Assembly: GCF_964194155.1 (NCBI RefSeq)
Contig: NC_135904.1
Coordinates: 14,818,001-14,882,000 of the forward strand
Direction of reading: 5' to 3'
From: Cetorhinus maximus
Lineage: Eukaryota
DNA length: 64,000 bases
Shown: in pieces, positions 19,801-22,800 of the stretch
Layout: each line of letters begins with the position of its first letter
How positions within the stretch are numbered: the stretch's first letter is position 1
Program-made: the position numbers and the translations under genes
Notes under the pieces: generated by a model
Databases searched by the model: none
What the model was told of the DNA's origin: nothing
What the model saw: the letters and a program-made list of their open reading frames with translations, nothing else

Positions 19801-22800
19801 TATAGAGTGCCGAGTGAAAATAGGAGGAACTGTTCCTTAAGCTTTTGCTATAAGGTGGTTGCATTTTTAAAGCTGGGTGCTGATATACAATGGAACTTTT
19901 TCATTCATTCTTGGGGTGTTGATATTTCTGGGAAGGGTGTAATTTATTTTCTGTGCCCAGTTGCCCTGAACTGCGGGACTTGCTGGCCTAGTTCAGAGGA
20001 CAAAGTGTCCACCACGTTGGTGTGGGACTGGAATTATATGTAGGCCAGACTGGGTAAGCATGATAGCATCCCTAAAAGAAATGAGTGAACCAGGTGTGTT
20101 CTTGCAATGGTCTGACAGGTTCGTGGTCACTTACTGATGCTAATTGTTTTCAATTTCCGGATTTTTGAAACTGAATTCAAATTCTCAGACTCATTCTCTG
20201 GATTACTTGTCCAGTTATTTGGCCACTGTATTACTGAAGGCCAAATCATTAGACTATAGATCAAATTACTCTTCACAGAATCTTTACAGTGCAGAAGGAG
20301 GCCATTTGGCCTATCGAGTCTGCACTGGCTCTCTGAAAAATGCCTTCTCCCCTGCCTTACCCCCGTAACCTTTCACATTCTTTGCAGATAGAAATTCAAT
20401 CCCCTTTTGAATGCCTCAATTGAACCTGCCTCCACCACCCTCTCAAAGTTTGTTCCAGACTTCAACCACTCTCTGGGTGAAAAGAATTTCCTCATCATTT
20501 TTAGGTATGCCTGGTGCTGCTCCTGGCATGCCCTCCTGCACTCTTCGTTAAACCAGGGTTGATCCCCTAGCTTGATGGTAATAGTAGAGTGGGGGATATG
20601 CCAGGCCATGAGGTTCCAGATTGTTGTGTACAATTCTGCTGCTGCTGATGGCCCACAACGTCTCATGGATGCCCAGTCTTGAGTTGCTAGATCTGTTCAA
20701 AATCTATCCCGTTTAACACAGTGGTAGTGCCACACAACACGATGGCGAGTATCCTCAATGTGAAGACGGGTCTTCGTCTCCACAACAACTGTGCAGTCGT
20801 CATTCCTACCCATACTGGCATGGACCGATGCATCTGTGACAGGCAGGTTGGTGAGGATGAGGTGAACTATGTTTTTCCTTGTTGTTGGTTCCCTCACCAT
20901 CTGCCGCAGTCCCAGCAGCTAAGTCATTTAGGACTCGGTCAGCTCAGTCAGTAGTGGTGCTGCCGAGCCGCCCTTGATGATGGGCATTGAAGTTCCCCAC
21001 CCAGAGTACATTCTGCGCCCTTCCCTCCCTTGGTGCGTCCTCCAAGTGGTGTTCAACGTGGAGGAAGCACAGATTCATCAGGTTAGGGAGGGTGGTATGT
21101 GGTAATCAGCAGGAGGTTTCCTTGCCCATGTTTGACCTGATGCCATGAGACTTCATGGGGTCCGGAGTCAATGTTGAGGACTCCCAGGGCAACTCCCTCC
21201 TGACTGTATATCAATGTGCTGCCACTTCTGCTGGGTCTGTCCTGCCAGTGGGCCAGGACATACCCAGGGATGGTGGTGATGGTGTCTGGGACATGATCTA
21301 TAAGCTATGATTCCATGAGGATGACTCTCAGGCTGTTGCTTGACTGGTCTGTGAGATAGCGCTCCCAATTTTGGCACTGGCCCCAGTTAGTGAGGAGGAC
21401 TTTGCAGGGTCGACAGGACTGAGCTTGCCATTGTCGTTTCCAGTGCCTAGGTCAATGCCGGGTGGTCCGTCCAGTTTCATTCCTTTTTTGTGACTTTGTA
21501 GCGGTTTGATACAACTGAGTGGCTTGCTAGGCTTTTTCAGAGGGCAGTTAAGAATCAGCCACATTGCTGGAGTCACATGTAGGCCAGACCAAATAAGGAT
21601 GATAGATTTCCTTCCCTAAAGGACATTAGTGAACCAGATGGGTTTTTCCAACAATGAACAATGGTTTCATGGTCATCATCAGACTTTTAATTGCAGATTT
21701 TTACTGAATTCAAATTCCACCCTCTGCCATGGTGGGATTCAAATCCGGGTCCCTAGAGCATTACTCTGGGTCTTTGGATTACTAATCCAGCAACAATACC
21801 ACTATGTCATCATCTCCCCCTTGTTAAACATGATTTTCCATTAATGAATCCACACTGGCTTTCCTTAACCATCCTGCACTTGTCTAAGCGACTGTTGATT
21901 TTTCCCCCAACTATAGTTTTCAGAAGTTTCCCTACCACTGAAGTCAAGCCGACTGGTCTGTAGTTGCTGGCTTTATCCTTGCATCCAATTTTGAACAAGG
22001 GTGCAACATTCACAATTCTCCAGTCCTCTGGCACCACTGCTTTAGCTAAGGGAGACTGGAAGATTATCAGTAGTGCCTCTGCAATTTCCACTCTCACTCC
22101 CCTCAGTAACCTTGGATTCATCTCATCCGGTCCTGATACCTTATCTATTTTAAATAAAGAGAGCCTTTCTTAAACCACCTTCCCCCTCCTCCTCAGTTGT
22201 AAACTCATCTAGTGTACCAGTTACCTCCTCTCTCACCTCAGCCTGGGTAGCATCTTCTTCCTTTGTAAAGTACTCGTTTAATATCTCCGCTATTTCTCCT
22301 GCCTCCATGTGCAAGTCCCCTTGTTATCCCTAATCGGCCCTACTCTTTCTTTGACCACCCTTTTATTATTTATATGCTTATAGAAGACCTTAGGATTCCA
22401 TTTTATATTAGCTGACAGTCGCTTTTCATCTTCACCTCTGTCTCTCCAGTCATCCAAGATGCTCTGGATTTATTTGTTCTTAAAGACAAGGTCCTGCTTG
22501 TCATTATTCATGATGAAACTCCTATTAAGAAAATTGCAGTCTGTGCAATTTTAAAACGTTACATCGCAAGTATCACGTTAGTGTCTTCAAATTCTCTTTT
22601 GTTTGAGGATTTTTTTTCCTCTGGTATTAAATGGGACATGCTGGAAATGGACTTAAAACAGAGGGTCATTCTGAGTTAACTTGCTGGAGCCATTGAGTGG
22701 ATGATGGTTATGCATCACTTCAACAAGAGGTTCTGTAGAGTCAATAACGGTGTTTCCCAATCTTGATCAGATGGAGGTGGTATTGTTCAGTATCTGCTGG

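Follow-up and report, generated by a model that had tools for sequence, protein, structure and literature searches.

A tRNA-like head on the Zenon LINEs of sharks and rays and its probable use as an internal polymerase III promoter

LINEs and SINEs are divided by polymerase, with Pol II transcribing the coding parent and Pol III the non-coding parasite. On the minus strand of the window (the whole 64-kb stretch of DNA analysed here), a tRNA-like head with A and B boxes runs straight into the leader and endonuclease frame of a LINE, which raises the question of whether the head is a chance neighbor or the LINE's own 5′ end and, if the latter, which polymerase reads the element. The first-pass annotation had placed the start of the head at 21820, its boxes, its anticodon arm and the run into the endonuclease frame, and all of these lie where it had put them (Table 1); it had also called the entire stretch 21820-21513 tRNA-like, which holds for the first ~100 nt, while the next ~215 nt are body. 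The reading developed below from the sequence is that this stretch preserves the 5′ part of a defunct member of the Zenon family of sharks and rays, and that the family is probably transcribed by Pol III from an internal promoter.

Table 1. Features of the window, in window coordinates; nt refers to positions in the complete element.
Feature	Position	Strand	Remarks
B-type elasmobranch Zenon LINE, 5′ 1346 nt, 3′ part lost	20495..21820	-	90.5% to 25-copy column majority (nt 1-1346)
tRNA-Thr(AGT)-like head	21722..21820	-	Alignment to tRNA-Thr gene L138 (0/1000 shuffles as good); sharp family 5′ edge
A box, one change from family in window copy	21799..21809	-
Anticodon arm	21790-21774	-
Anticodon arm plus a second hairpin arm of 21 nt, which probably arose from it by tandem duplication and diverged	21752..21790	-
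B box, decayed in window copy (2 changes), intact in family majority	21735..21745	-
Body common to LINE and SINEs, 3′ limit at SINE-A breakpoint	21513..21721	-
Candidate pseudoknot, stem damaged in window copy	21499..21540	-	Predicted only; without covariation
Basic leader and AP-endonuclease part of single frame, broken in window copy	20495..21502	-
SINE-A: A-type head (nt 1-315) followed by LINE tail (nt 3216 onward)	16205..16582	-
SINE-B: B-type head to about nt 292 plus LINE tail	33430..33765	+
SINE of same family, older and more diverged	19942..20184	-	69-75% identity
Zenon copy, 5′-truncated, headless (nt 344-1493 and 2376-2732)	41219..42718	+
Older Zenon copy, 3′ end with tail	38725..39446	-
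Zenon copy, 3′ end with A-type tail	33135..33435	-
CR1 copy, insertion host of Zenon, upstream part	21823..22429	-	CR1 3′ end at 20273-20503

In the window LINE the head meets the leader at 21513/21512, and the leader and endonuclease frame then reach 20495, where the copy ends at nt 1346 of a 3.28-kb element. The surrounding CR1 lacks ~1 kb at the same break. Since the Zenon and the enclosing CR1 are interrupted at one point, the simplest reading is a single later deletion, which most likely took the 3′ 1.9 kb of the window LINE together with ~1 kb of its host. The leader and endonuclease reported also at 41205 do belong to a Zenon copy, one which starts at nt 344 and has no head. An older endonuclease fragment (43110-43293; 79% to the family majority) has other sequence directly upstream. 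Outside the family, exon-like coding stretches of a host gene occur at 37939-38150 and 40558-41137 (+), their peptide presumably being USP8-like, and a decayed repeat at 19040-19340 (-) is what we take to be a DeuSINE of the SacSINE1 type.

The head as the 5′ end of a Zenon family

The genome search proposed in the first-pass annotation was carried out with a 261-nt junction query and yielded 5233 first-look candidates; 40 of 40 scored matches, one of which is the window, span the head-leader junction, which is therefore not unique to this locus. Unselected sequence gives a similar picture. Within 38 stretches of 10 kb, the family accounts for 27,092 of 380,000 bases (about 7% of the sampled genome) and contributes four head-leader junctions and nine SINEs; by extrapolation, and with wide error, head-bearing copies would number some tens of thousands genome-wide. 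The window is rich in both repeats, as might be expected had a SINE inserted by chance beside a truncated LINE at this locus alone. That account is refuted by the recurrence of one junction in every scored match, in two subfamilies and in seven published consensuses from five species; together with the four unselected junctions, the scored matches show that the window junction is not a chance product.

Thirty-nine loci of 8.5 kb share a sequence that begins abruptly at the head and stops about 3.3 kb downstream, and none of them has common sequence upstream of the head. So that copies would not be chosen by their head, endonuclease DNA alone was also used as query. This gave 29 loci, of which 15 are head-bearing and 14 are 5′-truncated, starting in the leader or the frame (L279 and L280 are uncertain, their head pieces being diverged or touching the locus edge). 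Eight of the head-bearing copies start within nt 1-20 and seven inside the head. Full-length copies thus begin at the tRNA head, and the ordinary 5′ UTR and ORF1 that the first-pass annotation had named as contrary evidence were not encountered: no alternative 5′ end exists among the 29 copies, whose upstream flanks match one another in two pairs only, at unrelated offsets. These sequence comparisons support the view that the LINE family genuinely begins with the tRNA head. Target-site duplications of at least 6 bp flank 7 of 20 LINEs and 2 of 18 SINEs (null 10% in each case). Contigs assembled from four sequencing runs of four organisms cover 30 of 30 bins and contain head-to-tail joints, and are uninformative on start, strand and polymerase.

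That a LINE inserts site-specifically into a SINE was considered and rejected, as the ORF extends into the common tail and truncated copies carry the tail without the head. At G000:C2:7177536-7196120, five Zenon endonuclease matches lie on one strand at a spacing of 4.5-4.7 kb, which suggests a tandem array or a segmental amplification holding the element.

Neither ARAGORN (0 genes in the window) nor Rfam (chance matches only, in the window head and 12 loci) calls the head, so its likeness to a tRNA is carried by alignment to the tRNA-Thr(AGT) genes of the genome, two of which were found by a pattern search. For three heads the alignment score was reached by 0 of 1000 shuffles, and for the head of the 16 kb SINE by 1 of 1000. 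Because the search was confined to Thr, the donor may have been another tRNA. In the family majority neither the A box nor the B box departs from consensus, and their spacing exceeds that of tRNA by 21 nt; CpG decay aside, they are intact in both subfamily majorities and likewise in the consensuses published for sharks. The anticodon arm is followed by a second hairpin arm of 21 nt, and the near identity of the two arms in SquAca_Zenon-1 (by eye) suggests a tandem duplication of the anticodon arm. No HDV-like ribozyme was matched by Rfam in the window copy or the 12 loci, all of which are decayed copies.

The family is the elasmobranch Zenon of Stuart et al. 2026 (PMC13343379), described there as ORF1-less, poly(A)-tailed and not yet in repositories. 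No difference in sequence separates it from the present family, which also has no ORF1 and an A-rich tail; CarCar_Zenon-1 agrees with the head and leader over its first 400 nt, as judged by eye and from two motifs, and is 3288 nt long against 3283 nt here. All seven published shark and ray consensuses (CarCar_Zenon-1, SquAca_Zenon-1 to -3 and those prefixed RhiTyp_, ScyCan_ and HypSab_) begin with the head, whereas two hagfish and one coelacanth Zenon consensuses are headless and have TTTT (first 400 nt of each, by eye). In its main text, that paper mentions neither tRNA nor polymerase III, promoters or start codons, and it is not known to describe a derived SINE; tRNA is likewise absent from the searched text of the supplement. 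A coding LINE with a tRNA head, which the first-pass annotation had thought unusual, was therefore already published, head included, and it is the tRNA likeness of the head that had gone unrecognized. Zenon belongs to the CR1 group. The suggested RT phylogeny was approached with a quick tree, which contained no named Zenon reference and placed the element among invertebrate single-ORF elements (support 99), apart from the CR1 of the same genome.

Coding frame and a candidate start without AUG

The full element consists of the head, one endonuclease-RT frame and an A-rich tail. In the majority of 25 copies (4.8-8.3% non-CpG divergence), a single frame of ~950 codons follows a 5′ region of 0.33 kb, and copies terminate in GAATGAAT and a short A-rich run. 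The reverse transcriptase was recognized through RVT_1 (E 7.8e-31) in a natural 573-aa piece, which also matches single-ORF elements of lancelet, sponge and isopod at 33-44%; the endonuclease was assigned by likeness to full-length matches carrying PF14529/PF03372. The majority contains stops at nt 374 and 2717, the former due to CpG decay and the latter assumed to be so. Differences between the subfamilies within the frame amount to 19 silent versus 11 replacement changes, which argues that the frame evolved under selection. Its Phe content is 1.9%, against 4.3 ± 1.5% in 64 relatives, 3 of which are as low. Elsewhere, at L108:4933-5901 (+) and L069:3339-4166 (-), there are open frames of 276-323 aa that presumably encode Harbinger-type transposases.

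The first in-frame Met is residue 266, downstream of the endonuclease, and no in-frame ATG precedes the endonuclease in the family; several AUGs lie upstream out of frame. One of these, at nt 348, opens a frame of 35 codons which overlaps the start of the endonuclease and, in 18 of the 21 copies measured, lies a single base out of register with it. Upstream of the endonuclease, the leader frame is interrupted at nt 317 by a stop codon in 18 copies and runs on through that point in 15.

A hairpin is predicted at nt 288-314, with a 7-nt loop containing TAGC that is complementary to GCTA at nt 326-329. Among 64 aligned copies, the GCT of this pseudoknot is in the endonuclease frame in all 12 with measurable spacing, and the frame continues past the pseudoknot codon in the published consensuses of four of five species, SquAca_Zenon-1 breaking it (by eye). 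Shuffling produced a motif of this kind in 3 of 1000 cases, in a test defined only after the sequence had been seen. The interaction amounts to four loop pairs and is without covariation, and the 5′ region folds no better than its shuffles (z -1.33 and -0.53), no larger IRES fold being detected in it. It is conceivable, and on this modeling we put it at somewhat below an even chance, that a small in-frame pseudoknot starts translation without an AUG. The intergenic IRES of dicistroviruses has a three-pseudoknot fold and starts translation at a non-AUG codon. We liken the present structure to domain 3 of that IRES, in which an anticodon-like loop presumably pairs with an in-frame codon ahead of the non-AUG start; the element offers a candidate for this last domain only, with four pairs.

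Runs of T and the choice of polymerase

The case for Pol III draws on a second character, independent of the head, namely the absence of T-runs. TTTT is the Pol III terminator, and protein can be made from Pol III reporters, as described in PMC8223928. In the sense strand of the 25-copy majority (3,283 nt) there is no run of four T (T4) versus 14 A4, 11 C4 and 9 G4, and six T3 runs versus 45 A3. TTT is the rarest triplet, with an observed/expected ratio of 0.22; as the ratios for AAA, CCC and GGG are near 1 (0.86-1.25), the deficit is not a strand-symmetric bias. The older A subfamily (18 copies, nt 1-1896) has the same deficit, the sole TTTT of its majority being a CpG-decay site. Dead copies acquire such runs readily (mean 1.44 T4; 18 of 25 with at least one), from which it follows that the active line must have purged them. 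The unit shares two features with Pol III type 2 transcription units: its 5′ end, of tRNA origin, holds the A and B boxes of an internal promoter, and its majority sequence is free of T4.

The genome's own CR1, comparable in T content, contains 7 T4 over 3152 nt, and every related ORF of at least 500 aa (50, from 80 metagenome loci) has 2.3-16.7 T4 per kb. ARAGORN, applied to 59 of the 80 metagenome relatives, found no tRNA gene in any of them, and a B-box-like motif lies upstream in only 2 of the 50. The T content of the element (0.20) is the lowest in the compared set. Under a first-order Markov null, zero T4 occurred in 330 of 2000 runs and is unremarkable, since the low TT is already built into that null. 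The synonymous-shuffle z of the element (-3.3) was rejected as proof of terminator avoidance, being unspecific: the CR1 control (-2.9) and two relatives (-3.4 and -3.7) score alike.

It has to be asked whether Pol II could make the element instead, with the head acting as its promoter or by read-through from the host, the T-run deficit then stemming from RNA stability, export or the need to keep the A-tail from pairing with U-runs. LINEs are regarded as Pol II transcribed (PMC5786205), the tail contains AATAAA, the element is T-poor overall, and the shuffle test does not discriminate. On the other hand, other LINE ORFs keep many T4, including L160, the one control ORF of the 50 which falls in the element's own clade in the quick tree; the boxes have stayed intact in both subfamily majorities and in the published shark consensuses; and a capped RNA would be scanned through several out-of-frame AUGs to a frame that offers none of its own. 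Transcription by Pol II appears unlikely on balance.

The Pol III reading we prefer would proceed as follows. TFIIIC would bind the A and B boxes of the head, and Pol III would read 3.3 kb without meeting a TTTT terminator and stop in the flank. Translation of the uncapped RNA would do without an AUG and possibly start at the codon that follows the tRNA-mimicking pseudoknot at nt 288-329; the protein would use target-primed reverse transcription to copy its own RNA at the A-rich tail. Through template jumps in this process, forms would arise in which head and tail are joined by deletion; retaining promoter and tail, these would spread as SINEs, and would have done so at least twice. Counting against this reading is the fact that the usual products of Pol III are far shorter than a 3.3-kb mRNA. 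The first-pass annotation held that a Pol III promoter replaces the usual Pol II 5′ UTR and ORF1; the T-run deficit speaks for the promoter, while the missing ORF1 carries no weight as evidence, being common to all Zenon elements. In the L1 system, Pol III transcripts are described as not needing ORF1 (PMC2666806).

A division of labor can also be envisaged, in which the Pol III RNA serves as template for copying while other copies, rarely transcribed by Pol II, supply the protein, through a frameshift from the 35-codon upstream frame or through splicing. The conserved AUG at nt 348 and the overlap of its frame with the endonuclease start would then have a role, and no uncapped RNA would need to be translated. 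Yet the basic leader in the endonuclease frame resembles the N-termini of the relatives P0001 and P0005. Read in that frame, the AUG at nt 348 falls within codons for Asn and Glu; inspection by eye revealed no slippery heptamer, and action of RNA and protein in cis gives the easiest account of selection on the ORF. We consider such a division improbable and retain transcription and translation of one Pol III RNA as the working interpretation.

Daughter SINEs and the meaning of the family

The SINE at 16205-16582 had been described as the head joined to the LINE tail, and this is borne out: it tracks the LINE head to CCACTCAGTT and then switches to the tail. With a tRNA-derived head, no ORF and the LINE tail, the short form has the makeup of a SINE2 element, and 40 of 40 scored genome matches to it are near full length. 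Heads are split by 26 diagnostic sites into an older A type and a younger B type, both found on LINEs which share one leader junction; A-type LINE copies lie 9.4% from their own majority. The 16 kb SINE is A-type at 25 of the 26 sites and the window LINE B-type at 24. Its derivation from the LINE is accordingly upheld as an internal deletion of the family but not as a descent from the window's B-type subfamily. A-head SINEs break at nt 315-316 and B-head SINEs near nt 292. The 33 kb SINE, said to have the same head and tail, does have the LINE tail behind a B-type head, but its junction is different and shorter. Judged by breakpoints and diagnostic sites, SINEs originated at least twice, contrary to the single origin first supposed. 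One-off head-plus-tail deletions with other breakpoints are frequent (L043, L131, L139, L252, L253, L257 and L269). As two SINE subfamilies with different breakpoints pair with two LINE subfamilies, it is very likely, on this sequence evidence, that they arose by repeated internal deletion of the LINE.

The history might have run in reverse, an older tRNA-derived SINE coming first and a truncated Zenon capturing its head and body by template switching. The invertebrate, hagfish and coelacanth relatives are headless, so the head was gained once from somewhere; SINEs are described as commonly exchanging modules (PMC4824008); and an older SINE layer is present at 19942-20184 of the window. The present SINEs nevertheless look derived, because SINE-A has no private bases between the common head and the common tail, SINE-B combines the diagnostic head of the younger LINE with another breakpoint, and one-off deletions with yet other breakpoints are common. 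We regard the reverse order as rather unlikely; it concerns the origin of the head and is compatible with Pol III transcription. The head may first have come from a tRNA gene or from an older SINE.

The older SINE layer (also L112, L157 and L084) has a different hairpin loop in its body and may be a third subfamily, useful for rooting. L060 joins an A-type head, a 160-nt deletion and a LINE body 87% like a B-type copy, and is possibly a recombinant or an intermediate subfamily.

A precedent is the lepidopteran Persaeus SIDE, short elements for which recurrent origin from a Zenon LINE through internal deletions, with microhomology at the breaks, has been described (PMC6740152). As described there, these have no tRNA head or Pol III promoter, whereas the shark LINE parent carries the promoter and its deletion product would be a SINE at birth. 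Bov-tA and AfroSINE are bipartite, with 5′ and 3′ parts from RTE or Vingi, the only groups found there to contribute (PMC5786205); they likewise share body with the 5′ region of a LINE as well as its tail, but in them the tRNA head was acquired by a deletion form of the LINE, the autonomous LINE having none. One sentence of the same paper mentions RTE-1_DAn and relatives as LINEs holding tRNA-like sequence; these belong to another clade, and the paper leaves out where that sequence lies, whether it acts as a promoter and how many T-runs they contain. MetaSINEs, as described in PMC4824008, also have a tRNA-Thr-like head but are non-coding, and the 66-bp Meta domain that follows it was not found here in a coarse comparison (by eye, two short motifs with at most two mismatches, bivalve members only). 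SacSINE1, CmiSINE and HE1 are set apart by the published descriptions of their head or partner LINE rather than by comparison of sequences. Judged from titles, the literature searched, which lay outside subscription journals, Repbase Reports, Dfam and bioRxiv supplements, holds no Pol III-transcribed autonomous LINE; with the same exceptions, the tRNA head, the T-run purge, the lack of an AUG and the two daughter SINEs appear unrecorded in print.

At its fullest, the proposal would be that of an autonomous LINE wholly dependent on Pol III, with an internal promoter, terminators purged despite the cost in Phe, and AUG-less translation from a pseudoknot; in effect an autonomous SINE, predating the split of sharks and rays and yielding ordinary SINEs by one deletion. 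We offer it tentatively, at below an even chance. If true, a Pol III promoter joined to a selected frame of 950 codons in a vertebrate family would break the rule that assigns LINEs and SINEs to different polymerases, and the element would be a natural long Pol III mRNA. A head-bearing LINE gives a one-step route to the birth of a SINE, and the source of a SINE body, a question called enigmatic by Kojima 2018 (PMC5786205), would here be shown.
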